A stretch of DNA of 64,000 nt from Deltaproteobacteria bacterium (lineage in GTDB: Bacteria; Desulfobacterota; Syntrophia; Syntrophales; UBA2210), in contig JAFDAI010000005.1 of the NCBI GenBank assembly GCA_019313905.1, forward strand, positions 2,997-66,996. Direction: 5' to 3'. Below, piece after piece: positions 29,176 through 55,463 of this stretch; position 1 is the stretch's first letter, and each line of letters opens with the position of its first letter. The notes beneath the pieces were generated by a model, which ran no database searches, was not told where the DNA came from, and was given only the letters and a program-made list of their open reading frames with translations. The position numbers and the translations under genes are program-made.

Positions 29176-29562
29176 TCAGCCCCCTTTGACAGCCGATGTA
29201 ATGGTGCCGTTTGCGTCAACCGAATAGACCAATGTGCCGTTGGCAGGCGTAGAGGTCATTACAAGGCCGGCCATGGTGCCCGTGGTAACCGCTGTAGTCA
29301 CATTGGCACTTGCCTTGAAACCGTTAGTCTGCAGGAGAGCTAAAGTTACAGTCCCTGTTGGATTTTCCGCAAAGTATGCCTGTGCCGCCGTGTAGGCATT
29401 TTTTACATCCGAGTTTGCCTGTGCGTTGAAACCCTTTGCCCTGTACGCCGAAAACTGCGGGATGGCGATTGCCGCCAGGATACCAATAATCGCGATGACG
29501 ATCATCAGTTCAATCAGTGTAAAACCCTTTTGTCCTTTTCTTCCGTTTAATTTCATCAACAT
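29176..29562 (-). CDS. pilA: Type IVa major pilin, Geobacter/Syntrophus-like
   Basis: Basic leader ...KGQKG|FTLIELMIVIAIIGILAAIAIPQFSAYR; monocistronic with RBS, sigma54 site and terminator. Confidence 0.93.
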   Translation of the reverse strand: MLMKLNGRKGQKGFTLIELMIVIAIIGILAAIAIPQFSAYRAKGFNAQANSDVKNAYTAAQAYFAENPTGTVTLALLQTNGFKASANVTTAVTTGTMAGLVMTSTPANGTLVYSVDANGTITSAVKGG

Positions 29563-29908: not shown

Positions 29909-31519
29909 TCAAAAATAGATTGCAGGCCTTAACAGCAGGGGGGCTCCGATGTTGCCCAGATCTATGATGAAATGGCACACTACGCATGGAACAATGCTTT
30001 CATTTTTCTCCTTAATCAACCCCAGAAGCATCCCGTACAAAAAGGCAAACGAGGCAAACTGCAGGCCGCCTATAAAATAATGTGGAAGGGCATAGACCGC
30101 GCTTTGTATGACATTAACAAAAAGTGTCGACCTGACGAATTTCCTGAGGAGTTCAAAAAGAGTAAGCCTGTAGAAAATTTCCTCGCTGAACGCGTTCAGC
30201 AGGCTGAGAATGATAACGGGCAACCAGACGGCCGTCCTTGAACTATCCACGGGATTTCTCATGAGCAGATACATTGAATACCAGGAGCTGATGATAATTC
30301 CGACAAAAAATACATTTGAAAATTTTTTCCAGGCAAACTGTTTCACAAATGGAATCCTTGCCCATTTGAGCCACAAAAGGGACAACCATGCCAGGATAAA
30401 CAGCGGCAGGTAAGTCATTATACTGGCATACACCGTGGCCAATCTGGCGGAACCGGTAAATGGCCACCTGACATAACCGCGGCTGACCAGATACAAAACA
30501 GCACCCATGAAAACAAACATGCAAACCAGATATGAAACCAGTGGAAAATACCGGTTCATCCGCGATCTCAGCAATAAATTACGGGGCTTATGCTCCGTTT
30601 TGATTCCAGATGGCAACGGGCCTAAAAGGACTTCCGAAGAAGGCGCCAAATATCGCGGGTTTTTTTGTGTGAGCAGCAGGATAAGAGTGCCCGTCATTAT
30701 AAAAATGAGCATGATGAGCTGAGGCTGGGTGAGACCGAATGCCTCTATCCTGTTCGTTCTGATAAATTCCATAAGGAACCTGACAGTACCATACAGAACC
30801 AGGTATCCCCCTACTACCCCACCCTTATTTCGTATAAGACCAAAGGGCCACGCGAGCCACTCGCGAATCCGTATGAAAAGGCCTGCCTGATCAGACAAGA
30901 CCCCGGATGCCACTTTTTGAACAACCCCACCTATGTAAATTCGGTTGTAAATCCGGCTTAAAATAAAAAATATGGTCAGATTGGCCAGGATTGCGTAAAG
31001 GGGGACAGGATTTGTAAAGGAGAAGTGGCTGCCAAAGACAGTGAAGCTGAGGGGTTTTCCCCAGCAGCAGCCAGCGGATAAACATCCCAGCCTACCGATC
31101 GCGTGCGCCAGGGGCACGTGCATAAAAGCCATGTCAACGACGCGCATCTCAGCAAACCGGAAAAGAACTGTTAGAAGGAAAAAAAAGGCCACAGGCAGAA
31201 TCAGACTGGCGTGGAAGGTGTGAAGGGTACCGGAGGTAATTTGGGTGTAAAACAGTTCCAGGCTCCAGCTTTTCAAAGGATAGTGCAAAATGCCCCCCGC
31301 CCTGCTGCTTATATAACCGAGGGGGAAAAAGAAGAGGGCCATCATAAGGACGAAAGAGGTAACCTTTCGCTTCGGATAGCCCGCCTGCAACATCCTTCTG
31401 TAAAAGAAAAAAGAAGCGGTAAAGATGCCGAGCAGGATAAAAAAATAGTAAACCGCGTTTACGATCGAGAGGACCTGGTGATAATCAAAAAGATACCGCT
31501 GAAGGACAAACTTGAGCAC
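29909..31519 (-). CDS. Fusion of an Lgt-like diacylglyceryl transferase domain and a CPBP (type II CAAX/Abi) intramembrane protease
   Basis: N-half: TFHAS, IGRLGCLSAGCCWG, YGTVRFLMEFIR; C-half: SEEIFYR, YALPH, CHFIID. Confidence 0.8.
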   Translation of the reverse strand: MLKFVLQRYLFDYHQVLSIVNAVYYFFILLGIFTASFFFYRRMLQAGYPKRKVTSFVLMMALFFFPLGYISSRAGGILHYPLKSWSLELFYTQITSGTLHTFHASLILPVAFFFLLTVLFRFAEMRVVDMAFMHVPLAHAIGRLGCLSAGCCWGKPLSFTVFGSHFSFTNPVPLYAILANLTIFFILSRIYNRIYIGGVVQKVASGVLSDQAGLFIRIREWLAWPFGLIRNKGGVVGGYLVLYGTVRFLMEFIRTNRIEAFGLTQPQLIMLIFIMTGTLILLLTQKNPRYLAPSSEVLLGPLPSGIKTEHKPRNLLLRSRMNRYFPLVSYLVCMFVFMGAVLYLVSRGYVRWPFTGSARLATVYASIMTYLPLFILAWLSLLWLKWARIPFVKQFAWKKFSNVFFVGIIISSWYSMYLLMRNPVDSSRTAVWLPVIILSLLNAFSEEIFYRLTLFELLRKFVRSTLFVNVIQSAVYALPHYFIGGLQFASFAFLYGMLLGLIKEKNESIVPCVVCHFIIDLGNIGAPLLLRPAIYF

Positions 31520-31697: not shown

Positions 31698-31729
31698 AAA
31701 AAAGTCCCGGCCGGACCGGGACCCTTTTT
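31698..31729. terminator. Hairpin terminator after the 1078-aa pilin-like gene
   Basis: GTCCCGG / CCGGGAC stem flanked by A6 and T5 tracts. Confidence 0.6.
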
Positions 31730-31762: not shown

Positions 31763-34700
31763 CTACTGGGCCATTATTCCCGGAAATGCCACCGCACCCC
31801 CTACTCCCTGAATAAATCTCCAGGCAAAGTCGTCAAAATAGACGGTTTCTCTGTCATCAACCTGAATATCGGCATTTGCGTTGATACCGAGGGTGTGCGC
31901 ACCGAACTCCGGGATGTCCTGTGTGTTGAAATTATAGTCTTCAGTCGTGAATGTTGGCGAATATACTATCGTCGGGTTACCACCACCGTCATAGCCGATT
32001 TCCACCAGCTTGTGAGTAACCGCTCCACACCCGAGGATGGAGTGAGTGATCGTTTTACTGGTATAGGCCTTCTTTTTATCGGCAAGTCCTCTTCCCCAGA
32101 TGACCTGGGTGAAATAATCACCTTGATCGGGCCACTTGATAATGCCCCTGTCCAACTTCTTTCTGTTCAGATCGGTCGAAGATGCGTTACCGAAAGATGT
32201 ACCGACATCGTTGTCGGGACTTGCGAAAAAGGCGGTCAGGGCATTCACTCTTTGCTCGGGGTTATCAGGATTACAATCGGACACCATCTCGTAGATGTTC
32301 ACCATAATGGTAATCCATTCCCTGGGATATATTCGATAGTTGTAAATCGCCTTGTCCGTCTGATTGGTGGTGGCGGGAGGCCTGATGTAACCCACAGGGC
32401 CACTCGCCCCTCCGGCAACCGGTTTCCCGATCGGGTCCTCCTCGCTTACGGTAGCCGGGTCCCTCACCACTTCCGCCCCGGGAAGCCCGAGCACTGTAAT
32501 ATCCTCTACCTCATAAGTTTTGAAAAGGCCGTAGATATCGGTGATCTTCCAGACCAGTATCGGCGTTCCTCCGCTTCCTTCATAAATGACCTCGACGTTT
32601 TGGGTCCCGTCCCAAACAGTTTCATAGTACACATATACCTCTTCGTGGCCCACCAGGGGCGCGTATGCCATCCGTTCCCAGGGAGAATAGGAGCCACACC
32701 CTCCCGAATCAGTGGCATCTTTCTGCCACAGGACGAGGTAGGGAATTCCATCAAATGGAGGGGTATCGTCCCAGTGGCTTTCCTGGAAACCCTCGCAATT
32801 GACAGGATCCGCAACCGTTGTCGAACCATGATCGTCATAGATTGAGTCGGGGATATCGTCGTTTTCAGTGTAATAAGTTTCCTCGCCGCACCCAGACCCT
32901 TCGACATGCTCGGCCCTGCCCTGTATGCCTCTCATGATGGAGAGCCCGTAGTAGGAATATCCACTGTCGCCAGAAACCAGTTTAACCCTGAAGGACAACC
33001 CGGGCATGTAGTTTCCCGGATGGTTCAACGGATCAGTTTCTGAAAGATCGTCTTCCACGTCTGTAAAGCGGATCTTGGTCTGGAGATCATATCTGAGTTT
33101 CTGTTCCGATTCATTCCACAGGGTCTGCAATGGATTGGTACCGGAACCCCAGTCAACAGCGCCCAGGCTTTCCTCCATATAGACATCTTCAGGCACAAAA
33201 GCTGAGATGACCTGTTCGGTTCCGGTCACCTTTATGGCCATGTCTCCATCAATCTCTTCTCCGGCGTGTGACCCGATTATGGATCTGACATTGTCAGGGG
33301 TCATCTCACCCTCAATAGTTCTGTAAAGTTCCATCACGCTCAGGGGTTGAAAAAGGGTTATGGACCTCGAAACCGAATCGCTCCCCATATTGACCGTCCC
33401 TGTTGAGGTGAACCTGGCAAACTCATTAAATGTCATGACCGTCTGGTCAGTTAGCGAACGGGTAAAGGGGGGAACACCCGGGGGACAGTGCAAACCGGTG
33501 AGTCTCCCGTTGTCTGTATCCAGATAATCGTACTGCAAGAAAAGCTCGGTGCCTTCCGGAGTCACTATGGTAAAAGTCCCCTGTACCCTGGGCAAAATTG
33601 TCAGATTGCCACTTATAGCGAGGTTGCTTGTCGATTGCGCTCCACAACTCGCGGGAGAGATTGTCTGATCACCGTTTACCTTCGCAGCCGGGTATACGGG
33701 GGCATTATCCACGGGAGTGCCGCTGGCGCTCGTACTCAAAGTAAATGTAACGGAAGAGCCGTCTACCGAGTAACCGGAATATGGCACGGTTTCATATGTT
33801 GAACCGGATGCATCGGGCACCGCGACGCGCAGGTCTCCGCTTTCAGTACCGGCTCCCGCGACAAAGTTGGAGGGTAAATTTACGGTCCCGATACCGCCAG
33901 GAGGTGTGACAACAAGGCTGTTGACCGTGGAATTCACGCTTAAAGACTCCTCAAACCAGTTCAGCTCCATGCTGAGCCTGAATTGATCGTTGTCCACAGG
34001 GATGGATTGATTCAGGAATAAGGAATCCATAAGATCCTGTCGATTGATGTTGAAATTGGCATCCCTGTGTTCCACGACCCTGCTGACCGCGTAATTCAGC
34101 CCGGATTGTGCCAGGTACTGGGCCTTTTGCGCATATGCAAACCTGATCGTGCCCGTGCTGGAAGAGCTGAAAAGGGAGACCATGGCGGCCCCCAGAATAC
34201 CTATGATGACTATTGTCACGATCACCCCTATAAGTATGGAGCCTGATCGACCCACAGGCAGGTAAAGTTTCAGGCCTTCAAACGTTCCGTGCCTTTTGAG
34301 CAACATGAAGAGTATCCAGCCGAGAAGGATAATCATGATCAGACCGGCTTTGTGGCACCAGGTAGCAGTCATCGTTCCCCTATCCTCAAATCCGGCTATA
34401 GCCACAAAACATCCGGGGGTTGTGGTCCCGGTACTTCCCGTTGGAACTGAGTAGCCGCTAAAGCCCTGCGGGACATAGACGTTTGAGGGCAAAATCTCGT
34501 CCACAAAAGTCATGCTTGTTCCTTCCGATGCGCTCAAACTCATTGAGATGCCTATGCGGGAAAGATCGCTGAGCCTGTCCGAGATCGACCAGGCATTCCT
34601 TGAATAATCGAGGTAGGTCAAGGAAAATGCCGACACATTGTCAGCCAATGTAAAGAAATTGCTGTAACCGTCGTAATCGCTGCTTTTAACCTGAAGTGTG

Positions 34701-35025: not shown

Positions 35026-35442
35026 CTATATTTCAATGCTTCCAAACAACAGTGCGTAGGTCAGACCGGATGACCCGGTTATAGTAACTTTTAAAAGGTC
35101 ACTGGAACTCCCCTCAACAGGAGTCCCGCCAGATCCGTAACCTGTTGCACCGGCTGTAACGGATATTCCTATTCCAGAGGCAGTGACATCGAAAAGTCCG
35201 CCGGTTATATTAGTTTGTAAGTCACTGATGCTGCCCAGTTCCCGGTATGCCCGCGAAATACTATCGGCCACCTGGTTCATGGCATGAACTTCCATGGTCT
35301 GAATCGCAGGCTGGGTGCTCCGGGTGAACACTCCACCCATCATTGAGACCAACATGGCCCCCAATATCGAGGTGATAATCAATGTCACGATTACTTCCAA
35401 CAAGGTAAAGCCTTCATGATTTCCCAATACTTCAGTTTTCAT
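35026..35442 (-). CDS. Minor pilin (PilV/PulI-like)
   Basis: HEG|FTLLEVIVTLIITSILG. Confidence 0.85.
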   Translation of the reverse strand: MKTEVLGNHEGFTLLEVIVTLIITSILGAMLVSMMGGVFTRSTQPAIQTMEVHAMNQVADSISRAYRELGSISDLQTNITGGLFDVTASGIGISVTAGATGYGSGGTPVEGSSSDLLKVTITGSSGLTYALLFGSIEI

Positions 35443-35963
35443 AATATAAATCCTGTATACGGAGTAATGTTGATAGCTCTTAACTCTAACCCTTCAGAGA
35501 CGTTTATGGGTGCGGCTGCTGTCAATCTCACGGTCGCACCGGCGTCCGTACAGGGAGACCCCCAATTTTCAAAGGAATATGTAAAGTCGGAAACCGAAAG
35601 ACCATATCCGGCAAGATCGACATCGAGATCATCCTCACCTGGCAGCTGTTTTTTTGTATTTATATTTCCACCAGTAAAGAGCCAGTACTTGTTCTGGAAA
35701 GAGTGAATCCCCCACACGTCATTTGAACTCATGCTCTTCATCTGGGCGTATCGCAGATGAGACTTCAGGATTTCCGTTCGTGCCACCAGTTCCGAATGAT
35801 GATCTGTAGCTCTCACCGCGACAAACGCGGAGACTATTCCAATCAAGACCAAAACAGCGATTACCTCTATCAAAGTAAATCCTGATTTATTTGTCCTTTT
35901 GCCTGGACCGGAACTATTTTTAATCATTGTTGCCCCTTTTCTGTTGAGGTCTTTAGCCGACAT
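35439..35963 (-). CDS. Minor pilin (FimT/GspH-like)
   Basis: NKSG|FTLIEVIAVLVLIG...LKSHLRYAQMKSM; start may be at 35927. Confidence 0.85.
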   Translation of the reverse strand: MSAKDLNRKGATMIKNSSGPGKRTNKSGFTLIEVIAVLVLIGIVSAFVAVRATDHHSELVARTEILKSHLRYAQMKSMSSNDVWGIHSFQNKYWLFTGGNINTKKQLPGEDDLDVDLAGYGLSVSDFTYSFENWGSPCTDAGATVRLTAAAPINVSEGLELRAINITPYTGFIL

Positions 35964-36543
35964 TACAGGAATATCTCTCCATCGTATAAGTGAGAAAACC
36001 TCCTATAATAATGCTGCCGATCGTGAGCGGCAGCAACGCAAAGGTCACAATTGGAATTCTCAAATCTATCTGAAGAATTACACTATTGATGATGATTACT
36101 CCTACATATAAAAATATGCCGAACTTGGCCGATCTGACCGATACCGGCCGACCTGAAACAAAGGATATGCCCAAAAGAGCAAAACCGATCGCGATTGCAA
36201 AAGAAAACTCCGGCTGATACAGTAACCAGATTGCCTGATAACTGGCACTGCTGATGGTTTCCAGGCTCCGCGAGAAAACGATTCCCACTACAAGATAAAA
36301 AAGGCTTACGAGGATAAAGTAGAAACCGCACTGGCTCTTCGTGATGCTTTCCGGAAATAACCTGAACCCTTTTAAATCGCGGGGCCGCACAAGAAAGTTA
36401 CGGATCCTGTTAACTGTTCCATATCGCACCGGACGCAGCCCGATCCGGGCCATAACCCGGTCGGCAAAATCATCGGGTGGCTGTACCGGAGACACCTCTT
36501 TTATCATATCCATGATGGCTTTGTTTTTGATTTTATCTCCCAT
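35953..36543 (-). CDS. Putative membrane anti-sigma factor (about 4 TM)
   Basis: PVQPPDDFADRVMARI then hydrophobic helices; directly downstream of the ECF sigma gene. Confidence 0.65.
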   Translation of the reverse strand: MGDKIKNKAIMDMIKEVSPVQPPDDFADRVMARIGLRPVRYGTVNRIRNFLVRPRDLKGFRLFPESITKSQCGFYFILVSLFYLVVGIVFSRSLETISSASYQAIWLLYQPEFSFAIAIGFALLGISFVSGRPVSVRSAKFGIFLYVGVIIINSVILQIDLRIPIVTFALLPLTIGSIIIGGFLTYTMERYSCNVG

Positions 36544-36782: not shown

Positions 36783-37355
36783 TTACAACCTTTTATCCGG
36801 CTCACCGGACTGTTCCTCCATCAATTCCCGCAGTTTTTCCAGCCCCCGGTACGCCCTCATCTTCGCGGCACTCAGAGAAAGCCCTGATATTTCGGCAACT
36901 TCTTCAAATGAAAGTTCCTGATAGAATCTCAGCACCACAGCCTCTTTCAGGTTATCCGAAAGCCTGTGCAGGCACATATTCAGATGACATACCCTCTGTT
37001 CGCGAATCAGAGAGTGCTCGGGGTTGGAAGGATTATCTCGCGAGAGAAGATCAGTATCCTCTGTAAAGTCACGCAAAAATACCTTTTTCCTCTTCTTCAA
37101 GTGATTCCGGACGAGATTCAATCCTATCGTATAGAGCCAGGTAAAAAACTTCTTTCCCTGATCGAAACGCCCGAGATTCTCAAACGCCTTTACAAATGTC
37201 TCCTGCGCGAGATCGCTCGCGTCCTCATAGGATCCCGTCATGCGGTAAGCAAGGTTAAATATCGGCGCCTTGTATGTATCCACCAGCAGGGCATAGGAAT
37301 GACGATCCCCCTCAAGGACGCATCTTATGATGTCAATCTCTTTTTTTTCTTCCAT
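36783..37355 (-). CDS. ECF RNA polymerase sigma factor
   Basis: DASDLAQETFVKA, FFTWLYTI (region 2); LSFEEVAEISGLSLSAAKMRAYRG (region 4). Confidence 0.92.
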   Translation of the reverse strand: MEEKKEIDIIRCVLEGDRHSYALLVDTYKAPIFNLAYRMTGSYEDASDLAQETFVKAFENLGRFDQGKKFFTWLYTIGLNLVRNHLKKRKKVFLRDFTEDTDLLSRDNPSNPEHSLIREQRVCHLNMCLHRLSDNLKEAVVLRFYQELSFEEVAEISGLSLSAAKMRAYRGLEKLRELMEEQSGEPDKRL

Positions 37356-37541: not shown

Positions 37542-37823
37542 TTAAGCTTCTATCCGTTTTTTGATGAGACTGTAAACTTCTTTTCGATGGATTATACCGA
37601 GAATTAAAATATCGTCACCGGAAACTTTAAAAACAACACGGTAATCTCCGACTCTTAACTTCCAGTATCCCTTAAGGGTTCTTTGCAACGGTTTCCCATA
37701 GGCTTCAGGTTGCGTGGCAAGCCGATCTTCTATGGCTCTTTTGATCATACCCCTGTTTTTAACATCAATTTTCGGCAGGTCAGATCTCTTGACATCCGGA
37801 TGGTATTTGAGTTTGTATGCCAT
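37542..37823 (-). CDS. RelE/ParE family toxin
   Basis: YGKPLQRTLKGYWKLRVGDYRVVF...IIHRKEVY. Confidence 0.9.
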   Translation of the reverse strand: MAYKLKYHPDVKRSDLPKIDVKNRGMIKRAIEDRLATQPEAYGKPLQRTLKGYWKLRVGDYRVVFKVSGDDILILGIIHRKEVYSLIKKRIEA

Positions 37824-37846
37824 TGCCTTTTCACAAGAGCTGAGCT

Positions 37847-38074
37847 TTAAGACCATACATCATCATGGCTTAGCGCCTTAGAGTCATTCCATGATTTTTC
37901 CCTTTTTTCGGCAAATCCGGAAAGGGCGATATCCTCTTGAATCTCCATGGCCTCTTTGAGCAAATCTCTGACCTTAGCGGACAATGAAACATTATCCTTC
38001 TCTGCCAGAAGTCGGACATCATGGTAAAGTAAATTGTTCAGGACTACATTTATACGTGGATTTTGAGCCGGCAT
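37847..38074 (-). CDS. Antitoxin (RHH/RelB-like)
   Basis: MPAQNPRINVVL...SLSAKVRDLLKEA...LSHDDVW; immediately upstream of the toxin. Confidence 0.85.
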   Translation of the reverse strand: MPAQNPRINVVLNNLLYHDVRLLAEKDNVSLSAKVRDLLKEAMEIQEDIALSGFAEKREKSWNDSKALSHDDVWS

Positions 38075-38310
38075 GATCTTTTCCTCCGAATAAAATTGAG
38101 AATAAGTGTAACAGTGGTGACACACCATGTCAAATTAAAAAATAGGTGGGGTCAGACCCCATGACCCAACTGGAATATTGTCAAGACAATTTTCCATAGT
38201 TATAGAATATTGTCGATAGAGGAGTTAAGTGACCAGCTATTAGCGGAGAAACAGTAGATTCTCGTACCAAACATGGCTTCGAAATGCGCCGTATCCCCAC
38301 TTTTTCCTAA

Positions 38311-38488: not shown

Positions 38489-39373
38489 ATGCCGGATATA
38501 ACCATCATTATCCCAGCATACCGCGAAGAAAAAGTGATTCCCGATGTCGTCGGAAGAATACTCCGCGTAATGGATGCGACGGGTCGGGATTATGAGATAA
38601 TAGTGATAGATGACGGGTCAGACGATAAGACAGCCGCGGAGGCAGGAAGTGCCGGCGCTCGCGTAATATCCCACCCATACAATATCGGTAACGGAGCTGC
38701 GGTAAAGACCGGGATCAGAAACGCGAAGGGTAAGATTCTGGTCACACTTGACGGGGACGGCCAGCATTCGCCCGAAGACATACCCCGCCTGCTGGAAAAG
38801 ATGGATGCCTATGACATGGTGGTCGGCGCGCGAACGCGCGATTCGGAGGCCTCTTTCCACAGAACCATGGTAAACAGGATCTACAACTGGTTCGCCACAT
38901 ACATGTGCAAACGCAGGATCGAAGACCTGACATCGGGTTTCAGGGCGATAAAAACGGACATTGCCAGCCGCTTTGTCTCCCTGCTGCCCAACACCTTTTC
39001 CTATCCGACAACCATTACAATGGCAGTGGTACGCTCCGGATACAGTCTCGTGTACGTTCCGATAAAGACAACTCGCCGCGTGGGAAAAAGCAAAATCAAG
39101 CTGGTAAAAGACGGCTCCCGTTTTCTTTTGATCATTATCAAGATTGCCACACTTTTTTCACCCATGAGGATTTTTCTGCCCGTTAGTACGACCATGTTCC
39201 TTGCGGGACTGGGCTATGGTCTTTTCAAGATATTCTTCATAGGAGGACAGTACGGCCCTACCTCCGCCATGCTGATGACAGTAGCCGTTGTGATATTCAT
39301 GGTGGGACTTGTATCAGAACAGGTGGCACAGTTGAGGTTTGACAGAGCAGAAATTTACGATGACAAAAATTGA
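38489..39373 (+). CDS. GT2 glycosyltransferase (polyprenol-phosphate-sugar synthase / DPM1-like) with C-terminal TMs
   Basis: IIPAYRE, IDDGSDD, NIGNGAAV, DGDGQH, DLTSGFRA. Confidence 0.9.
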   Translation: MPDITIIIPAYREEKVIPDVVGRILRVMDATGRDYEIIVIDDGSDDKTAAEAGSAGARVISHPYNIGNGAAVKTGIRNAKGKILVTLDGDGQHSPEDIPRLLEKMDAYDMVVGARTRDSEASFHRTMVNRIYNWFATYMCKRRIEDLTSGFRAIKTDIASRFVSLLPNTFSYPTTITMAVVRSGYSLVYVPIKTTRRVGKSKIKLVKDGSRFLLIIIKIATLFSPMRIFLPVSTTMFLAGLGYGLFKIFFIGGQYGPTSAMLMTVAVVIFMVGLVSEQVAQLRFDRAEIYDDKN

Positions 39374-39417
39374 ACAACCTTTTCCTATATATTCACTTTC
39401 AGTGGAGTTGATCAATA

Positions 39418-40575
39418 GTGCTGTCTAAAAAGAATAACCTGCTTGTAACCACATCTACTTTCTGGAGATGGAAGGGTGATGTAATCCCCTCGTTTGTATA
39501 TGATCTAAGCAAACGTTTGGCAAAAGATTTTGATATTTGGGTGCTGGCTCCACATTCCAGGGGAGCGGCAATATCCGAACAATTGGACGGATTAAATATC
39601 TTCAGATACAAGTATTATTTTAACAAATATCAATACTTGGGTGAGAAAGCAATCCTTCCTAATTTAAGAAGAAATCCCTTTTTATGGCTACAGGTACCCT
39701 TTTTTCTTATTGCGCAATTACTTGCAATCAAAAAAATAGCGAAAAAACATAACATTTACCTTATACATGCTCATTGGATAATACCACAGGGGATCATAGC
39801 TGTTTTATATAAATTCTTCTTCAATAGAAATGTTAAGATAGTTGTTACAAGCCACGGAACTTTGAACAATATTGACCGCCTGACTGTTGTCAGTTCGGCT
39901 ATAAAAGATGAAGTTGTGTCTTTAGGAATAAACAGAAATCTGCCTATTGATGTCGTACCGATGGGTGTTGATTTCTCACTCTTCAGTCCGGAACATTTTA
40001 ACGAAAGCATAAAGAAAAAATATTCTATTAATGGCCCTTTTCTTCTTTTTGTAGGACGACTCTCTGAAAAAAAAGGCATTGAATATTTAATCAAGGCTAT
40101 GCCCTCCATTCTCCTTGATTTTCCGGAGACAAAGCTGTTGATAATCGGCGAAGGAGAAAAAGAGTTTGATCTCAAGTCTCTTTCAGAAAAATTAAACCTA
40201 ATGGATAAATCGGTTATTTTTGCGGGTGCAATATCAAATGAGAATCTTCCTCAATATTATGCTACAGCGGATATTTTTATTAATCCCTCCTATTCTGAAG
40301 GATTCGGCCTTGTTTTTGTTGAAGCTATTGGTAGTGGGACCTACACAATTGGTACGGATTTGCCTGCCATATCAGATATTATAAAAGAAGGGAAAACGGG
40401 GTTCATAGTAAAACAGAAAGATTCAGAACAGATTGCGGATAAGGTTAAATTCATTCTTTCAAACAAATCGAAACTCATAAATATAAAGCACAAGGCCAGG
40501 AAAATAATAATTAAGAAGTTTGATTGGAATATTATTTCTAAAATATATAAACAAATATTAGCGTGTGTTAAATGA
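39418..40575 (+). CDS. GT4 glycosyltransferase (apparent short in-frame deletion)
   Basis: HAHWIIPQG, FVGRLSEKKG, EGFGLVFVEA. Confidence 0.88.
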   Translation: MLSKKNNLLVTTSTFWRWKGDVIPSFVYDLSKRLAKDFDIWVLAPHSRGAAISEQLDGLNIFRYKYYFNKYQYLGEKAILPNLRRNPFLWLQVPFFLIAQLLAIKKIAKKHNIYLIHAHWIIPQGIIAVLYKFFFNRNVKIVVTSHGTLNNIDRLTVVSSAIKDEVVSLGINRNLPIDVVPMGVDFSLFSPEHFNESIKKKYSINGPFLLFVGRLSEKKGIEYLIKAMPSILLDFPETKLLIIGEGEKEFDLKSLSEKLNLMDKSVIFAGAISNENLPQYYATADIFINPSYSEGFGLVFVEAIGSGTYTIGTDLPAISDIIKEGKTGFIVKQKDSEQIADKVKFILSNKSKLINIKHKARKIIIKKFDWNIISKIYKQILACVK

Positions 40576-40842
40576 GTTGCAATAATGTTTTCCGCAGAAA
40601 GGGAGAGCGGGGTTGAAGTCGTATAGAAACAATTTTTTGATTGATCGCATAAAAAACCCCTTAAAGCGATTTTATTGTCATGAAATACAAGGTTTCTCTT
40701 GAGTTTTCCGTCAATGCAAAACAGCAAAGAAGATTATCACAGACAAATTTTACTAAAGTGTAACATCGAATGACAGCGAGTTTTCTGTGTGCTGATTTTA
40801 AAAAGGAAAAGCTGAAATCAATTTTTCGGATAAGGTGGTAAT

Positions 40843-41724
40843 ATGAAAATAGAATATCAACTGATTAAAGATGGATTAATGATTATGAAAAGGTTTGGAA
40901 TACGACATGCCATACGAAGAACAAAAGACTTAATTCTAGTTAAAAAAGAAGAGAAAAGAAGGGCTAAGCTATATAATAAGATTAAGCCTGAGGGAACAAT
41001 AATAAGAGAAATTATCGGCAGTAAGATGAAGCTGGATATGAGTGACCAGGGAATACATAGGGATTTGTTTCTAGATGGCATACGGGAACCGGTTGCAACA
41101 AAACATTTAATGGGTGTTCTGACAAAAAACGATGTGGTGTTGGATATAGGAGCAAATATAGGCTATTACACCCTCCTGGAAGCCAAACTATGTAAGAAGG
41201 TTTATGCCGTTGAACCAGTCCTAAGTAATGTGGTTGTTCTCAAAGACAACATAAAGTTAAATCATTATAACAATGTGGAAGTTTCTAGTTTGGCCTTTGG
41301 TAAAGCCACAGGGATAGAAAAGATGTACTTGTCGCCAAAGAGTAATTGGCATAGCTTTTACCCGATAAAAAATATGGTTGGAGAAGCGAAAATCAACGTT
41401 GACACCGTTGATAATTTTCTTAAAGACAGAGAAGATCCAACAATCGTAAGGATGGACGTTGAAGGATACGAATTGAACATATTGTATGGCATGACAGAGA
41501 CTTTAAAAAAGATAGATAGATTATTCATGGAAATCCACGCTGATATAATGAGTCTGGAAGATACGAAAAGATTGATTGAGATATTAAACAGTGAAGGTTT
41601 CTTCCCGGAACTGATTATAAAATATGACAGACCAGGTCTAAGCAGGATCTTGCCTGACGATTATATTGGCAAAATTTATAAGGGAGATAAAGGTGGATAC
41701 GAGGTTTTTTTCAGAAAAAAATAA
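40843..41724 (+). CDS. FkbM family methyltransferase
   Basis: VLDIGANIGYYT, YAVEP, RMDVEGYE. Confidence 0.9.
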   Translation: MKIEYQLIKDGLMIMKRFGIRHAIRRTKDLILVKKEEKRRAKLYNKIKPEGTIIREIIGSKMKLDMSDQGIHRDLFLDGIREPVATKHLMGVLTKNDVVLDIGANIGYYTLLEAKLCKKVYAVEPVLSNVVVLKDNIKLNHYNNVEVSSLAFGKATGIEKMYLSPKSNWHSFYPIKNMVGEAKINVDTVDNFLKDREDPTIVRMDVEGYELNILYGMTETLKKIDRLFMEIHADIMSLEDTKRLIEILNSEGFFPELIIKYDRPGLSRILPDDYIGKIYKGDKGGYEVFFRKK

Positions 41725-41732
41725 ATAGTCGT

Positions 41733-42728
41733 TTGAAATTCAACCCCCTATGCCATTCCAATCTATATAAGAAAGTTGATATGAGAAAAAAACGCATATG
41801 GCCTCTTATCACAATAGTATCTATTGCGGCCTTAATAATAATATATATCTATCATCACCCTTATTCCCTTGAACCTTTTAAAGATGTTAGTCCCTCTATC
41901 CTCATTTGTTTAATAATCAGCAGAATTTTGTTCCAAATAACAAACGGGCTTATATTGCGAGAAGTTGCATCCAAGTTTAATATAGTACTGACTATAAAGG
42001 AATGGTTTGGTCTTCCCTTTGTTACAGCCATGGGGAATTATATAACGCCCTTTTCCGGTGGTATGATTGCCCGGGCATCATATCTGAAGTACCGCCATAA
42101 TTTCTCTTATGCGCAGTTTGTATCGGTTCTTGGAGCAAGCTTCCTGATATTCTTCTGGATAGCCGGCATGACAGGCATAATTACTCTTATATTGTCTCTT
42201 GAGAGGTCAGCGATCTACTGGCAGTTAATTTTCTTTTTTGGAGCGGTTGTCCTAAGCATTTCAATGGTCGCCATTCTCCCTTCTGTAAAGCTGCCCGGCA
42301 ATAACAGACTGTCAACACTTATAAATAACTCACTTGAAGGATGGGATTTCATAAAAAGCGACCTGTTTCTTTTAACCAAACTCGCCCTGTATACACTTGC
42401 AAACATTTTTATAAACGGGATCTCCTTCTGGCTGGCATTTGTTGCACTGTATGGAACTTCTTTATCAGTTGGAAAGGCTTTTCTAATCAGCCTGTTTTCG
42501 ACCTTTTCCATTCTTGTGAGAATAACGCCTGGCAATTTAGGGGTTTTTGAGAGTATTGTCAGCCTTAGCTCTGGAATTTTAGGGGTTGGCGTTAGCCCTG
42601 GTTTAATGGTATCCCTGCTCATCAGGGCGGCTTCCATGATTCCTATCTTCACCCTGGGCCCGATCTTCAGTTTTGTGCTTACACGTGAATTAGCGGGTAA
42701 TAAAAGAAGAAATGACGATGATAACTAA
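41733..42728 (+). CDS. Flippase-like membrane protein (lysylphosphatidylglycerol synthase TM / YbhN family)
   Basis: Multi-TM; NYITPFSGG..ARASYLK; ITPGNLGVFE; start possibly MRKKRIW at 41781. Confidence 0.8.
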   Translation: MKFNPLCHSNLYKKVDMRKKRIWPLITIVSIAALIIIYIYHHPYSLEPFKDVSPSILICLIISRILFQITNGLILREVASKFNIVLTIKEWFGLPFVTAMGNYITPFSGGMIARASYLKYRHNFSYAQFVSVLGASFLIFFWIAGMTGIITLILSLERSAIYWQLIFFFGAVVLSISMVAILPSVKLPGNNRLSTLINNSLEGWDFIKSDLFLLTKLALYTLANIFINGISFWLAFVALYGTSLSVGKAFLISLFSTFSILVRITPGNLGVFESIVSLSSGILGVGVSPGLMVSLLIRAASMIPIFTLGPIFSFVLTRELAGNKRRNDDDN

Positions 42729-44844
42729 AGACAATGGATTTGATCTGAATATCAGGTGGCGTTTTCCCAGCGGCAGGAGATATGCCTTCACATTTGCCGT
42801 GCTTTTCATATCTCTTATCATCATCTACGGGAACACTTTCCACGGTTCATGGCACTTTGATGACCACGTCAATATTGTCGAGAATAGGAATATTGAACTG
42901 AAATCACTGTCCCTGAATGAAATGCAGAAGTCATTCTACGGCGTAGATTTTAGCCATGAAAAGATAAGTCGTCCCCTGTCATACCTGTCATTCGCTCTGA
43001 ATTATTACATAAGTGGCACGAATACTTTCGGATATCATGTCGTCAATTTCGCCATCCATTACCTGGCAGCGGTGTTTCTGTTTCTTCTTATATATAATAC
43101 CCTGCGATTGCCTTTCCTGAACGAACGATACGGTAATATCGCCTATGCCGTCGCCCTTCTCTCCGCCTTTTTGTGGGCGACGCATCCCATACAGATTACT
43201 GCCGTGACCTATATCGTCCAGAGGATGGCAAGCATGGCCGCACTGTTTTACATCATGGCAATGTATCTCTATCTCAAGGCAAGAACAACTCATGGGAACA
43301 AACAGCGCATAGTTTTTGTCGCGCTGTGCTGCGTGACGGCGATCCTTTCTTTTGCAAGCAAGGAAAATGCTGCCATGCTTCCTCTCAGCATATTCCTCTA
43401 CGATCTGTTCCTGATACAGGGCCTGACACATGAAAATATAAAGAAAAACCTGAAGATAGCTTTAGTTCCTGTTATCGTAATCCTGCTGGTCACTCTTTTT
43501 TATGTTGATCTGCCATCTATCCTTGAAGGGTACAAGAACCGCCCATTTACACTCACGGAAAGGCTGCTTACCGAGCCGCGTGTCATCCTCTTCTATATTT
43601 CGCTTCTGCTCTATCCTGTCACATACCGATTTGCCCTGCTGCACGATTTTGGGGTCTCTGCTTCCCTGCTCACACCATGGGCCACTGTACCGGCCATATT
43701 GACTATTACAATTATCATCGGCCTCGCACTGTGGCGATCACGGAAAAATCCACTGATCAGTTTCTGTGTCCTCTTTTTCTTTCTCAATCATATTATAGAA
43801 GGCTCCTTTATTCCCCTAGAGATTATCTACGAACACAGAAATTATCTCCCTTCAACTCTGCTGTTTGTACTGTTTTCCATCTTTATAATCAACGTCATTA
43901 ATTACTTCTCTTACAAAAAGAGTGTGCAATTCCTCATGGTATCCGGAATAATAATCCTTATGGTCTTCCAGGGCCATACCACATATTCTTACAACAAACT
44001 CTTCAGATCCGAATACATCAGGTTGCTCGATAATATCTCAAAGGCCCCTAACCTGAGTCGCCCTCACAACAATCTTGGAAGGTGGTACTGGGACAAAAAT
44101 ATCTATTCAAAGGCATTCGAGGAAAGTAACGAAGCGCTTCGCCTTGACAACTATTCAAACCTGAGGCTGCCCGCTATCACACATGAGAATATCGGCATAT
44201 ATTATCTGAGAACAGGCAGCTACGACAAAGCCATGGCACATTTCCTGGAGAGCGTCAGGATTTCCTCGGGAAACACCCATCCCCGCACGTACTTTGGCAT
44301 TGCAATGACAAATTATAGGATGGGCAATCTTAATGAGGCACAAAAGTACATAGAAGATGCCATCGCCATCCTGCCAGAAAGCGAGGAATACCGCGCGATA
44401 CTCAGCATGATCCTTTTGAAATCCGGCGACATTGATGGGGCCATACTGGCCGCCGGAAAGGCCCTGGAACTCAAAGCGGATTATAATATTCCCCTGGTAA
44501 TGCTTGCGGAGTCCTTCAGAAAAAAAGGAGACAACAAAAAGGCTGTTCGTTATTGGGAGGCATTTCTAAAAGAGAATCCCAGATATATCAAAGGCCATTT
44601 TGCCTTGGCCGAAGCGCTCTCAGTCACTGGTAATAAGAAAATGCTCAGCAAGATCATAGGGCGTTTGATGTATCTGAAGGGAGAAAAGAGTTATACTGAA
44701 ATAATACAGGAAGCAAACGGCAAGGATGACATCACACCTTATATCTGCGATCCGGATATACTGCTGCCTATTATCAGGAAAAGCCTTACCGATCAGGCAA
44801 AAGATGTAAGTATGGAAGCACGCAGCCTCACCGGGAGCAAGTGA
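42712..44844 (+). CDS. TMTC-like membrane glycosyltransferase (GT-C) with C-terminal TPRs
   Basis: WHFDD, RPLSYLSFALNY, GYHVVN..IH, HPIQITAVTYIVQR, SKENA, EHRNYLP, then TPRs (RPHNNLG...). Confidence 0.82.
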   Translation: MTMITKDNGFDLNIRWRFPSGRRYAFTFAVLFISLIIIYGNTFHGSWHFDDHVNIVENRNIELKSLSLNEMQKSFYGVDFSHEKISRPLSYLSFALNYYISGTNTFGYHVVNFAIHYLAAVFLFLLIYNTLRLPFLNERYGNIAYAVALLSAFLWATHPIQITAVTYIVQRMASMAALFYIMAMYLYLKARTTHGNKQRIVFVALCCVTAILSFASKENAAMLPLSIFLYDLFLIQGLTHENIKKNLKIALVPVIVILLVTLFYVDLPSILEGYKNRPFTLTERLLTEPRVILFYISLLLYPVTYRFALLHDFGVSASLLTPWATVPAILTITIIIGLALWRSRKNPLISFCVLFFFLNHIIEGSFIPLEIIYEHRNYLPSTLLFVLFSIFIINVINYFSYKKSVQFLMVSGIIILMVFQGHTTYSYNKLFRSEYIRLLDNISKAPNLSRPHNNLGRWYWDKNIYSKAFEESNEALRLDNYSNLRLPAITHENIGIYYLRTGSYDKAMAHFLESVRISSGNTHPRTYFGIAMTNYRMGNLNEAQKYIEDAIAILPESEEYRAILSMILLKSGDIDGAILAAGKALELKADYNIPLVMLAESFRKKGDNKKAVRYWEAFLKENPRYIKGHFALAEALSVTGNKKMLSKIIGRLMYLKGEKSYTEIIQEANGKDDITPYICDPDILLPIIRKSLTDQAKDVSMEARSLTGSK

Positions 44845-45505: not shown

Positions 45506-45877
45506 TTAGGGCGCCTTCCAATTCCCAGTAACGGTTCCTGCGCTCGAGTCCGACCATGACACAGTCACAGTTACAACAGAACCGGCAGAAGCAAAACCGT
45601 AGTCAAAATCATCACTGCCTGGTGGATTAGCGGTGGCGGCTGTTACCACAGCGGCTGCAGTAGGCGCGACACCATTTGACATTGCAAGCCTCGCAAATTC
45701 TAATGAGCAGGTCGACAGTCCAGCTGAAAGACCACCTTCGAGTGCTTTAGTATTGGCGTCACTCGTCAAACTCAAGAACTTCGGTACCGCCACCGCGGCG
45801 AGAATGCCCAGGATGATCAGGACCGCGATGATTTCGATCAATGTAAAACCCTTCTGATTCCTCAACTTAATTTTCAT
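45506..45877 (-). CDS. Type IV major pilin (MshA-like)
   Basis: MKIKLRNQKG|FTLIEIIAVLIILGILAAVAVPKF; AAGGAGG RBS; own sigma54 site and terminator. Confidence 0.9.
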   Translation of the reverse strand: MKIKLRNQKGFTLIEIIAVLIILGILAAVAVPKFLSLTSDANTKALEGGLSAGLSTCSLEFARLAMSNGVAPTAAAVVTAATANPPGSDDFDYGFASAGSVVTVTVSWSDSSAGTVTGNWKAP

Positions 45878-45952
45878 TTTGAAATCCTCCTTTTTTGAAA
45901 TGGTTTTTTCATGGTTGTCTTAATATTCATAACATTTCATTTAAAAATATAA

Positions 45953-45968
45953 AGCATATTTCATGCCA
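45953..45968 (-). promoter_or_regulatory. Sigma54 (-24/-12) promoter of the MshA-like pilin
   Basis: Minus strand TGGCATGAAATATGCT, GG-N10-GC, 76 nt upstream of the ATG; adjacent to a sigma54 activator gene. Confidence 0.75.
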
Positions 45969-46078
45969 CATCTGCCAATTTTTTGACTACCCCCTCCTTT
46001 CTTCTTTCTCGCCGTTGCATCTGCAACCTTCGTTCGCACTATTCCATACCATTGTTTATACTGCCACGCAACCCATTA

Positions 46079-46223
46079 TGAAACATCCGTAAAAAGTCGT
46101 GAACCGGGTCATTGTGAGAAGCGTAGCGACGAAGCAATCTAATGAATACAGATGGTTATAACGTACGAGATTGCTTCGCTCCGCTCGCAATGACAGCCTT
46201 TTCGACTTTTGACGGATCTATCA
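46079..46223. mobile_element. MITE-like element carrying a GTCATTGCGAG-type palindromic repeat
   Basis: Ends TGAAACATCCGTAAAAAGTCG / CGACTTTTGACGGATCTATCA; inner arms GTCATTGTGAGAAGCGTAGCGACGAAGCAATCT / AGATTGCTTCGCTCCGCTCGCAATGAC. Confidence 0.75.
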
Positions 46224-46390
46224 ATATTATTCCATAGACTCTTTCTGCCTCCCCTTTTTTCAACAATTATCCGGGGGATACGATCCCGATTTAATGAAAC
46301 CAAATTGGGTCACACCCCAAAAACAGGCATCCAATCTTTGTAAATACCCCTTTATCCCCACATGCAATGCTCCAAATAATGTAGCGTCAT

Positions 46391-47746
46391 CTACAAATTT
46401 TGTTGCTTTTTCAGCGAGGGTACTTCTATTTCATATTTTCTTATCCGATGCCAGAGGCTGCGTTCCTTTATGCCCAGCAATCTTGCCGCTTTTACCTGTT
46501 TACCATCCGCCTTGACAAGGGCTTTGATTATCATATTCTTTTCCAATCTTTTTAACCTGCCGTCTATCGATATTCCCTCCTCCGGCAACTCATCATCGGA
46601 TATTTGGCGATTATCCTCTTCCAGTATATTCACCGGCAGGTGTGAGGTCTCAATAACACCCGATTCTGTCATAAGCGCGGCCCGCTCTATCACATTTTGA
46701 AGCTCTCTCACATTACCGGGCCATGAATACGTTTTCAGGTGTTCCATGGCGTCCGGAGAAATTTTTACCGGCCTGGGTGCATCCTTCAAAAAATAATCAG
46801 TCAGGACGAATATATCCTTCCTTTTTCTGAGCGGAGGCAGTATAAGGGGAAAAACATTAAGCCGGTAATACAGATCCTCCCTGAATCTTCCATCCTTCAC
46901 CATCTTGAAAAGATCTTTGTTGGTGGCGGCGATAAAGCGCACATCCACCCTTATGAGTTGATTACCGCCGAGCCGCTCAAATTCCTTCTCCTGCAATACG
47001 CGAAGCAGCTTTGCCTGGATTGCCAGGGACATATCCCCTATCTCGTCCAAAAAAATGGTGCCGCCATTGGCCAGCTCGAATTTCCCCTTCTTCCTCGCAG
47101 TCGCCCCTGTGAAAGCGCCTTTTTCATACCCGAAAAGCTCGCTTTCAAGAAGATCCCCGGGGATGGCGACGCAGTTAATCGTCACAAACGGCTTGCCTGC
47201 GCGAAGACTGTGCTTATAGATGCTCGTAGCGACAAGTTCCTTACCCGTGCCGCTTTCACCCATAATTAGGACCGTGGTATCAGTCGGGGCAACCTTAAGG
47301 ATCTGGCTGAATACCCCACGTATGATTTTGCTCTGGCCGATCATCTCCGGAAAGAGTTTCTCTGCTTCAACTCTTCCCAATATATCAGTGATCTCCCTCA
47401 ACACCTGTCCGTAATGTCCGATGTCATCATCAGGTTTCTGTCTTTTTTCAGCAGCAACACCCCGGAATACCGGCAACTTTTCTGTTTCTTTAACAAATTG
47501 TTTCACCGGCCTCAGTATGAGCCAGATCACTAGAAATCCACACAGGAAGGTAAGTACACTTATTCCGCCCCCCCATAAGAGGTGTGTTATTCCCAAGTGG
47601 TATGAACCGCTTGTCGTATGCAAGGCAATAATAAAAGACAGGATTGACATCCCGGAGAAGATACCGGGGATAATGATATAGAGGCTTATGCTGTATCTGG
47701 AACCGGCCGAGAAAGGTCTTCTGCCGGTTTTATCTGTCTGGGACAT
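46391..47746 (-). CDS. Sigma54-dependent transcriptional activator with two N-terminal TM helices and no receiver domain
   Basis: [36 protein letters not shown]-terminal HTH; hydrophobic segments at about aa 20-42 and 53-78. Confidence 0.92.
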
Positions 47747-47764
47747 GTTTTTTTAATCACTTTA

Positions 47765-48985: not shown

Positions 48986-49000
48986 TCACAATATCCTTGT

Positions 49001-50710: not shown

Positions 50711-50743
50711 CTTACAGCCCTTTCTTCTTTTAACAAATAGATA

Positions 50744-52399: not shown

Positions 52400-52414
52400 C
52401 CGTCAGATGCTGGA

Positions 52415-54355: not shown

Positions 54356-54361
54356 TAAAGG

Positions 54362-54841
54362 TTATTCTTCTAATAATGGGATGGTAATGCTCATCCCTTT
54401 TATTTTTCCCTCAATAACAACTGCAGAGGGCCTTATATGCCTTACAATATACCCCACAAATTCAAGTTCATCCCCGGCTTCATAGATCACGTTGTTTATA
54501 ATCGCTATCTTTTTATTGCCGATCTCCAGATAACCGGTATATTCCAACCCCAGACCCATAACGTTCACCAAAGAGGTGGTTTCTTTATAAAAAGGATCTC
54601 TCTCCCAATTGCTTTCAGCGCTGGTAACGATATCAGCATAAATCGGGTAAGATTCGCTGTCTTTTAAAATCTCCAAAGCATCCGTTATGAGATTGTCTAT
54701 TTCCGCTGTGCTCTCCGGGGTTACAGTATTTATCAGCTTCGGCGACGAAGCAATAAAGAAGCTATAAACGCCGTACAGAACAGCAGCCAACATGACAACT
54801 ACTATCACTATCTCCCTTGTCGATACTTTAACTCTTTCCAT
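54362..54841 (-). CDS. PilP/MshK-position pilus assembly protein
   Basis: N-terminal TM, WERDPF, AIINN..YEAGD; between pilO and pilQ. Confidence 0.6.
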   Translation of the reverse strand: MERVKVSTREIVIVVVMLAAVLYGVYSFFIASSPKLINTVTPESTAEIDNLITDALEILKDSESYPIYADIVTSAESNWERDPFYKETTSLVNVMGLGLEYTGYLEIGNKKIAIINNVIYEAGDELEFVGYIVRHIRPSAVVIEGKIKGMSITIPLLEE

Positions 54842-55455: not shown

Positions 55456-55463
55456 TTTCAGTC

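Follow-up and report, generated by a model that had tools for sequence, protein, structure and literature searches.

A single-chain fusion of an Lgt-like domain and a CPBP protease domain beside a two-module pilin gene: a candidate enzyme for lipidation and cleavage at cysteine

A minus-strand gene joining an Lgt-like lipid transferase domain to a CPBP (CAAX-type) protease domain was characterized in a stretch of 64,000 nucleotides, here called the window, from a Deltaproteobacteria bacterium (assembly GCA_019313905.1, contig JAFDAI010000005.1). The gene is a single open reading frame (ORF) of 536 amino acids (aa), and its start position is matched in the alignment by homologues, which open with M-L-K. 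It is composed as follows (window coordinates; other loci, genomes and contigs are cited by handles beginning with L, G and C):

29909..31519, minus strand: Lgt-like::CPBP fusion gene (P0001), 536 aa, GTG start, one ORF
30653..31519, minus strand: N-terminal Lgt-fold domain, residues 1-289, with H103, R143, C146, G150-C-C-W-G154, N170PVPLYA, R247, E251 and R254
30563..30652, minus strand: Lys/Arg-rich linker of variable length, about residues 290-319, delimited by predicted local distance difference test (pLDDT) values, K/R count and alignment columns
29912..30562, minus strand: C-terminal CPBP/Rce1-like domain, residues 320-536, with E446-E447-x3-R451, Y476-x3-H480 and C515-H516-x3-D520

Both halves were recognized by Pfam above the gathering score. 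The N-terminal half reached 76.1 bits against LGT (PF01790; gathering score 24.9) and the C-terminal half 55.7 bits against the Rce1-like/CPBP family (PF02517; gathering score 22.4). Two domains in one 536-aa ORF bear out a preliminary description of the locus, in which a single polypeptide with an Lgt-like and a CPBP part had been proposed, and the motifs quoted there were all found in the translation (TFH103AS, IGR143LGC146, R247FLME251FIR254, N170PVPLYA, EExxxR, YxxxH and HxxxD). Structure prediction, which the same description had suggested along with the Pfam scan, gave a model with an Lgt fold of seven membrane helices and a periplasmic head, followed by a CPBP fold. The pLDDT of the linker falls below 50 at residues 295-318, the loop 285-326 contains 8 K/R residues, and the linker segment 290-319 is predicted to lie on the cytoplasmic side. 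Judging from the helices of the model and the K/R-rich loops, H103, R143-G154 and E251 probably face outside, a placement that agrees with the topology of Escherichia coli Lgt. In public databases the annotation reads 'prolipoprotein diacylglyceryl transferase (family protein)' or 'CAAX protease/Lgt', and an ESM Atlas cluster of 54 members with both domains carries the same automatic name.

The fusion belongs to a small but recurrent family. A word-indexed protein search returned 36 proteins at E ≤ 0.001, 32 of them (484-540 aa) with both Pfam domains; where source labels were given, they read Deltaproteobacteria, Desulfobacterium, Desulfobacter, Desulfatitalea and Spirochaetota metagenome-assembled genomes. 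From contigs of one genome per species, 80 loci were kept for scoring with hidden Markov models (HMMs) of the two halves. The N-half HMM separated 12 loci, at 238 bits or more, from the remainder at 97.9 bits or less, and the C-half HMM matched 10 of these 12: in the same ORF at seven loci (L008-L011, L014, L015, L019) and in the next ORF at three (L012, L013, L016), while L017 and L018 run off contig ends. Metagenome contigs from JGI added 27 loci, comprising 18 ORFs with both halves, three split forms (L105, L107, L109) and end fragments. The split forms thus amount to six loci, where the two halves are adjacent and mostly overlapping genes. An exhaustive search of 1.84 billion representative sequences gave 79 at E ≤ 1e-30; some are full-length fusions, and others consist of the N-half only (about 250-305 aa) or the C-half only (about 190-246 aa). 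One family member, P0055 (887 aa), has an N-terminal extension of about 420 aa ahead of the fusion, and Pfam finds only the Rce1-like domain in it. Among 401 sampled genomes of the window's phylum, the fusion was present only in the window's own.

A tree of the N-terminal half was computed from 33 rows, with near-duplicates and truncated loci (L093, L099, L100, L102, L104 and L110 among them) omitted. Fused and split forms grouped as one clade (support 100/99), apart from canonical Lgt and from the single-copy Lgts with a Cys-type signature described below; deeper placement is unsafe because the canonical Lgt branch is long. Since the two halves are fused in some members and encoded by adjacent, often overlapping genes in others, a functional coupling between them can be argued.

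The N-terminal half is a divergent Lgt. No match was obtained when PDB sequences were queried with the single fusion sequence; comparison of the family profile with solved structures led to E. coli Lgt (5azb, E 2.6e-10). In the profile alignment, R-x-x-C-x-x-x-G-C-C-W-G of the family corresponds to E. coli R143-L-G-N146-F-I-N-G-E151-L-W-G154, and N170-P-V-P-L-Y-A corresponds to H196-P-S-Q-L-Y-E (to E202), so that the H-P-x-Q-L-Y-E motif is missing. The counterparts of E. coli H103, R143, G154, R239 and E243 are kept. Of the signature G-R143-x-G-N146-x-x-N-x-E151-x-x-G154, R143 and G154 remain, and N146 and E151 are both replaced by Cys. The score against the Lgt equivalog NF000778 is 40.5 bits, far from the cut-off of 334.

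N146 and E151 count as essential residues of E. coli Lgt, and the preliminary description had laid stress on the altered Lgt motifs of the fusion. That stress was too strong. A pattern scan found hundreds of Lgt genes with G-R-L-G-C-F-x-A-G-C-C-W-G, mostly in Acidobacteriota (e.g., L020-L087), and in three of five genomes checked (G402, G403 and G404, labelled Blastocatellia, Thermoanaerobaculales and uncultured Clostridia) such a Cys-type gene, at 176-185 bits on Pfam LGT, was the sole Lgt found. At the H-P-x-Q-L-Y-E position, too, some of the single-copy Cys-type Lgts deviate, with H-P-F-P-V-Y-A or I-P-T-Q-L-I-E. The 'essential' E. coli residues are therefore not universal, and the Cys-type signature appears compatible with ordinary Lgt activity, because the only Lgt found in these three genomes carries it; the N-terminal half of the fusion may be fully active. 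The idea that the invariant C146, C151 and C152 mark an altered active site or a new chemistry was dropped, the same motif being present in the only Lgt found in G402, G403 and G404.

A separate housekeeping gene is present in the window's genome. This canonical lgt, on contig C73, reaches 240.6 bits against Pfam LGT and contains GRIGNFLNGELYG and HPSQLYE; its motifs read S-Y-H-G-G-L, G-R-I-G-N-F-L-N-G-E-L-Y-G, H-P-S-Q-L-Y-E and Y-G-A-V-R-F-C-I-E-F-F-R. The fusion is thus not the only lgt of the genome; had it been the only one and acted on ordinary lipoboxes, this would have spoken against the preliminary description, which asked for a check that such a housekeeping copy exists.

In the C-terminal half, E446, E447, R451, Y476, H480, H516 and D520 are invariant across 35 sequences, so all three motifs of CPBP proteins, which are Rce1-type glutamic intramembrane proteases (EExxxR, (F/Y)xxxH and HxxxN/D), are present, as had been claimed beforehand. 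The best NCBIfam matches were the myxosortases MrtS and MrtJ, with scores below the cut-offs: 36.8 bits against 130 for MrtS, 31.1 against 75 for MrtJ, 26.5 against 250 for MrtP and 24.4 against 100 for Mrt_core (NF040914). Both domains come from known superfamilies, and by the equivalog cut-offs neither half qualifies as an Lgt or as a myxosortase. Three stand-alone CPBP genes were also found in the window's genome.

In the window, the fusion gene is part of a minus-strand series of pilin genes:

36783..37355, minus strand: extracytoplasmic function (ECF)-type sigma-70 factor at the operon head, with Sigma70_r2 and Sigma70_r4
35953..36543, minus strand: membrane protein in anti-sigma position, 196 aa; no Pfam family, very weak anti-sigma-E match
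35439..35963, minus strand: minor pilin, GspH-like, 174 aa; N_methyl, weak match to TIGR01708 gspH
35026..35442, minus strand: minor pilin, 138 aa; N_methyl, TIGR02532
31763..34999, minus strand: giant two-module pilin-like protein, 1078 aa, candidate substrate; prepilin N-terminus, N_methyl at residues 6-30
34280..34411, minus strand: internal connector of the giant pilin, residues 197-240; C197-F198-V-A-I-A, polar stretch, membrane helix, K-R-H-G
34160..34243, minus strand: second prepilin-like N-terminus at the start of module 2, G253/S-I-L-I-G-V-I-V-T..., recognized from the translation, homologues and BLASTP self-similarity
31703..31722, either strand: GC-rich hairpin in the gap between the giant pilin and fusion genes, with T-runs and a terminator-like appearance on both strands
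29176..29562, minus strand: major-pilin-like protein, 128 aa, Cys-free, downstream of the fusion; N_methyl at 44 bits
29072..29102, minus strand: strong terminator-like hairpin after the major pilin gene, a 13-pair stem followed by a T-run

The order along the minus strand is therefore ECF sigma factor, anti-sigma-position protein, two minor pilins, giant pilin, fusion, major-pilin-like gene and terminator-like hairpin. The ECF-sigma-headed part (sigma, anti-sigma, pilin, pilin, giant) is kept in nine loci with an upstream flank (the window, L094 and L160-L167), the anti-sigma-position protein following the sigma gene in each of the others as well, and a major-pilin-like gene likewise lies downstream of the fusion in L094 and L095. 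The anti-sigma-position protein ends in a four-residue Cys tail, C-N-V-G in the window and C-N-A-S in L094 (3036-3722). This tail was discounted as a client, because the four predicted helices of the protein would leave it in the cytoplasm.

The giant pilin is 35% identical over its full length to its orthologue at L014. Module 1, of about 190 residues, is followed by a Thr/Gly/Pro-rich linker and then by the Cys-Phe connector, which consists of C197-F-V-A-I-A-G-F, a polar stretch, the helix A-G-L-I-M-I-I-L-L-G-W-I-L-F-M-L-L, K-R-H-G and a 15-residue loop. Module 2 (825-839 aa) matched no Pfam family, and a BLASTP self-similar segment aligns its start with the true N-terminus of the L014 protein. 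C197 and F198 are invariant in five of five giant pilins, and the linker, the Cys-Phe pair, the membrane helix, the basic cluster and the second prepilin-like start were found in all 13 giants (window, L014, L093-L095 and L160-L167), eight full-length ones coming from fusion-less genomes of the phylum. From this layout, module 1 would lie outside, the connector helix would return to the cytoplasm and the second pilin helix would lead out again. In G113, G278 and G329, modules 1 and 2 are separate genes.

The connector at L014 is longer and passes the CFI-box-CTERM model NF041770 with 55.5 bits (cut-off 40). Among the 13 giants, the CFI-box part is full in some and shortened in others. The window's giant pilin gave no match to NF041770 at E up to 1, and its connector looks like a truncated sorting signal of the CFI-box type.

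Several observations link the fusion to the giant pilin. The fusion gene directly follows it in the window, L093, L094 and L095, whose copies share 70-88% identity and represent one lineage, and again in L014, where the fusion is 38% identical, belongs to a separate deep branch and starts after a gap of 12 bp. The split form L107 comes after an operon of FimU/PilX/PilY1-like minor pilins. In two fusion-less genomes, G366 and G040, the giant pilin orthologue (800 bits) has behind it first a PAP2-superfamily protein and next a divergent Lgt paralogue of 280 aa (L160 9248-10831 and L161 9662-11287 for these two genes), with a canonical lgt of 240 bits kept elsewhere. This paralogue scores 77 bits on Pfam LGT and reads R-V-G-C-F-L-N-G-C-C-Y-G; since it reaches only 23 bits on the HMM of the fusion family, it is regarded as a separate recruitment. 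Two different Lgt paralogues beside the same Cys-bearing giant pilin constitute the strongest single argument for a reaction of the Lgt type on this protein.

Taken together, the best reading of these sequences is 'lipidate, then cleave', as the preliminary description had put it. That proposal is supported in part. In its favor are the fused or adjacent gene pairs, the separate lgt, the intact CPBP motifs and the candidate encoded upstream, whereas the myxosortase scores, far under their cut-offs, do not favor it. Likewise, the predicted non-canonical Cys substrate found a candidate in the Cys-Phe connector encoded immediately upstream, and the genome profile against CFI-box-CTERM, the one known Cys signal met next to a fusion, was negative. 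The fusion is tentatively proposed to be an accessory two-step processing enzyme of the inner membrane that would lipidate a client Cys and cut beside it, with the giant pilin as the likeliest client here, a proposal whose chances are put slightly short of even. For the statement that members of the family add a lipid to a Cys-containing stretch of protein and cut it, the chances appear evenly balanced, and that the Cys197 connector is the client in this window is possible though rather unlikely.

Lgt moves diacylglycerol from phosphatidylglycerol to a Cys thiol. In the first step of the proposed mechanism, the Lgt-like domain would attach diacylglycerol to a Cys thiol held on the outer side of the inner membrane. 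In the second, the CPBP domain would cleave on the C-terminal side of the lipidated Cys, the side on which Rce1 and, by proposal, myxosortases cut, according to passages of PMC11980579 and of a 2023 myxosortase preprint. In the window, Cys197 of the giant pilin would be lipidated and the connector, with its helix and basic cluster, cut away, which would part modules 1 and 2: module 1 would end in lipidated Cys197, the connector helix would be released, and module 2, through its own prepilin-like start, could go to the PilD of the genome.

A number of results weigh against this two-step reading. The predicted template modelling score (pTM) of the fusion model is 0.57, and the mutual placement of the two active sites is not fixed by it. 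At the locus itself, the hairpin at 31703..31722 separates the giant pilin gene from the fusion gene. Pilin genes were seen at only six of about 40 loci of the family, many of them too short to show neighbors, and the neighborhood differs between clades. In the fusion-less genomes with a full-length giant pilin, six of eight had no Lgt-like gene among the listed surrounding ORFs, and one of these six, G018, which is 100% complete, gave no Lgt match at all.

Profiling against CFI-box-CTERM, a check on Cys-signal proteins of the kind that the preliminary description had called for, also turned out negative: the signal was above the cut-off in one of ten fusion-bearing genomes and, within the phylum sample of 401 genomes, in 98, all without the fusion. 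A role of the fusion as the dedicated CFI-box-CTERM enzyme in general was rejected on these counts. The window's genome had no pass, its best match, of 18.2 bits, lying elsewhere. A CPBP orthologue group close to the C-terminal half and tracking the CFI-box was not found either: relatives at E ≤ 1e-12 occurred in 11 of 401 genomes, and in the ten apart from the window's own they scored at most 62 bits, eight of the ten being in family f18, where the CFI-box was present in none of ten genomes. As the profile, the giant pilin neighborhoods and the CPBP tracking were all negative, the fusion is not a general CFI-box enzyme and is at most a dedicated or auxiliary enzyme of the CFI-box type in a few lineages. 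The 18.2-bit match mentioned above is a membrane protein of 491 aa on contig C165 (L088 619-2094, minus strand), covering model positions 19-44 without the Cys motif; a stand-alone CPBP gene (L088 2-676, minus strand) comes directly downstream of it, and a GspI-like pseudopilin adjoins.

A broader version of the two-step reading takes the family as a bacterial, envelope-side counterpart of eukaryotic CAAX processing in one protein, which would yield C-terminally lipid-anchored surface proteins from clade-specific clients; this is considered doubtful. The Lgt-type domain would attach a diacylglyceryl thioether to a Cys at or close to the C-terminal end of a client, and the CPBP domain would trim the residues beyond it. 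The clients would be the Cys-Phe connector of the giant pilins in the pilin operons, 'linker-G-G-C-x' tails in L015/L110 and L102, and the terminal Cys of a family of 312-318 aa. The neighbors concerned are:

L015 307-1155; L110 36-608; L102 1514-2389: PETase-like proteins with a Cys tail
L016 11568-12524; L106 10435-11373 (minus strand); L112 5949-6887 (minus strand): family of 312-318 aa

The PETase-like lipoproteins lie directly upstream of the fusion and end in ...P-P-N-G-G-C-D (L015/L110) or ...G-S-G-G-S-G-G-C-E (L102); their relative in L111 has no Cys tail. A 348-aa protein in L106 ends in ...D-D-D-D-D-D-S-G-G-C-G and an RHS protein in L016 in ...G-G-N-G-C-P-K-K. The 312-318-aa family has an invariant terminal Cys (I-G-C-S-E, I-G-C-Q or I-T-C-K). 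In such neighbors the Cys is one to three residues from the C-terminus, and in several of them, in other clades, it is preceded by a low-complexity linker. These endings may be short CAAX-like tails, or chance, and are taken as a lead rather than a finding. No signal common to the other clades of the family was found. When short 'G-G-C-x' C-terminal tails were considered as clients in the window's genome, none was convincing among 2289 approximate ORFs. Because 109 of these ORFs have a Cys within the last four residues, the G-G-C-x tails elsewhere may partly be chance.

The neighbors of other clades also bear on a different explanation, in which the fusion remodels envelope lipids: with a phospholipid as donor, the Lgt-like half would pass on a diacylglyceryl group, or one like it, to an acceptor that is unrelated or no protein at all, and the CPBP half would have some other role in that lipid pathway, catalytic or as a scaffold. 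The split-form clade comes directly after a neutral ceramidase gene (L012, L013, L109). In the Desulfobacterales-type clade, an HGSNAT/Acyl_transf_3 membrane protein is encoded directly downstream, as confirmed by Pfam in L010, L015, L111 and L113 and judged by eye in L097, L114, L116 and L117. PETase-like esterases occur in L015, L102 and L111, and the PAP2 phosphatase stands beside the separate Lgt paralogue in G366 and G040. CPBP-fold proteins can moreover be non-proteolytic, SpdC and LnsB being the examples given in the part of PMC7387801 drawn on here. All CPBP catalytic residues are, however, invariant in the fusion, unlike in LnsB or SpdC as described there, and the window is a pilin operon without lipid-enzyme neighbors. 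Lipid remodelling is judged unlikely. We know of no Lgt with a non-protein acceptor, which also counts against it. A protein of about 1000 aa with MFS, spermidine-synthase and TPR parts adjoins the family gene in the Spirochaetota clade and in some members of the Desulfobacterales-type clade, confirmed by Pfam in L008, L009, L015, L099 and L111.

Quite improbable, too, is a specialized maturation of ordinary N-terminal lipoproteins, with the Lgt-like half acting on the lipobox Cys of a subset and the CPBP half replacing or assisting signal peptidase II, or tailoring its products in the manner of LnsB. The Cys-type Lgt signature would be compatible with such a housekeeping function, and LnsB offers the precedent of a CPBP-like protein in lipoprotein tailoring (part of PMC7387801), albeit one lacking the catalytic motifs that are invariant in the fusion. 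N-terminal lipoboxes were indeed found on neighbors in other clades (the PETase-like proteins of L015, L102 and L111), but lipoproteins are common and such neighbors are expected by chance; the genome already has a canonical lgt, and no operon neighbor in the window has a lipobox.

Finally, although split forms of the family exist, an artefact of assembly or annotation in which two genes were joined in error, a doubt raised in the preliminary description, is excluded for practical purposes, because the same fusion recurs across databases, genomes and metagenomes (an uninterrupted ORF of 484-540 aa in 32 database proteins and in 25 further loci, namely 7 genome loci and 18 metagenome ORFs) and the split forms fall on other tree branches.

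Elsewhere in the window, the following genes were noted:

45506-57326, minus strand: MSH-like type IV pilus/type II secretion system (T2SS)-like assembly cluster, with a PilM-like protein, two small ORFs, a secretin with SPOR domain, AAA_22, an MshE-type ATPase, a T2SSF protein, a sigma-54 activator and a pilin
38489-44844, plus strand: glycosyltransferase block (GT2, GT4) with an FkbM methyltransferase, LPG_synthase_TM and a TPR protein
37542-38128, minus strand: gene for a ParE-type toxin (104 aa), preceded by a small ORF in antitoxin position; the pair immediately precedes the ECF-sigma pilin operon

The G+C content falls to 0.344 at 40-42 kb of the window, compared with about 0.46 elsewhere. 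A replacement of the prepilin peptidase by the fusion was ruled out, since PilD is encoded on contig C66 (87.8 bits).

The lipidate-then-cleave reading can be set against what has been proposed for Cys-bearing sorting signals. MrtX, MrtP, MrtJ and MrtS are CPBP proteases paired with the MYXO-CTERM, JDVT-CTERM and Synerg-CTERM signals, in which an invariant Cys is combined with a membrane helix and a basic tail, and a model of lipidation followed by cleavage was proposed for them (passages of PMC11980579 and of the 2023 preprint). According to PMC11980579, the MYXO-CTERM signal with its invariant Cys is cut by a CPBP protease (myxosortase), and the lipidating enzyme is stated to be unknown; its authors predict an 'Lgt-like acyl-transferase' and regard Lgt as the leading candidate. 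The word 'fusion' is absent from the 2023 preprint. In a limited literature search, judged by titles and the openings of abstracts, no paper describing an Lgt-CPBP fusion was found, nor any on the CFI-box. What is new is the setting of the gene behind the giant pilin gene and an architecture that fits the two-step model for Cys-bearing sorting signals and may help to test it. A natural fusion, accompanied by adjacent pairs of an Lgt paralogue and a CPBP protein that is catalytically intact by its motifs, is the kind of genomic evidence that joins two steps of a pathway. If the reading is true, the fusion would be the missing 'Rosetta stone' pointing to an Lgt-type enzyme as the supplier of the lipid in myxosortase-like sorting, and, being compact, made of two domains and encoded beside a candidate client, it would lend itself to a direct test of lipidation followed by cleavage. 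Most uncertain is what the enzyme acts on, be it the pilin connector, short Cys tails, ordinary lipoproteins or a lipid. The giant pilin would itself be an undescribed pilus component, two pilin-like modules made as a polyprotein and held together by a membrane connector resembling a sorting signal.

Compared with known systems, the fusion differs from Lgt (E. coli, PDB 5azb/5azc; PF01790) in being a second copy beside a canonical lgt, in being joined to a protease and in forming, with its family, a clade of its own apart from canonical Lgts. An Lgt domain is likewise fused to a second enzyme in the Lgt + O-methyltransferase proteins of Acidobacteriota and the Lgt + HAD/PpaX proteins of Bacillota, but the partners there are soluble enzymes, whereas the partner here is an intramembrane protease. 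In the ESM Atlas, the former make up two clusters, of 290 and 55 members, with Acidobacteriota as the most frequent source, and the latter one of 981 members, mostly seen in Bacillota; a methyltransferase as partner is reminiscent of step three of CAAX processing. With respect to CFI-box-CTERM, the window's connector has retained Cys-Phe-(Val/Ile)-Ala at its front together with the membrane helix and the basic tail, and lacks the central 'AAYG...LRxFRD...YY' part. It is also internal rather than C-terminal (residues 197-240 of 1078), with a second pilin module after it, whereas the ordinary CFI-box proteins of the phylum that were looked at are secreted proteins with the box at or near the C-terminus, in genomes without the fusion.

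The LnsA/LnsB system of lipoprotein N-acylation in Staphylococcus aureus resembles the fusion in that a CPBP-like membrane protein acts on lipid-modified Cys termini; as far as the part of PMC7387801 used here covers it, LnsB lacks the CPBP catalytic motifs, which are invariant in the fusion, and is partnered by an NlpC/P60 enzyme and not by Lgt. As in the myxosortases, the C-terminal half of the fusion is a CPBP protease by family. An invariant Cys-Phe pair, a helix and a basic stretch occur in the neighboring giant pilin, where this candidate signal is internal and not C-terminal. None of the myxosortases covered by the portions of the literature checked has an Lgt domain, and in the known lipidate-then-cleave cases the lipid-adding enzyme is a separate protein, whereas the fusion carries a bacterial Lgt-type transferase on the same chain.

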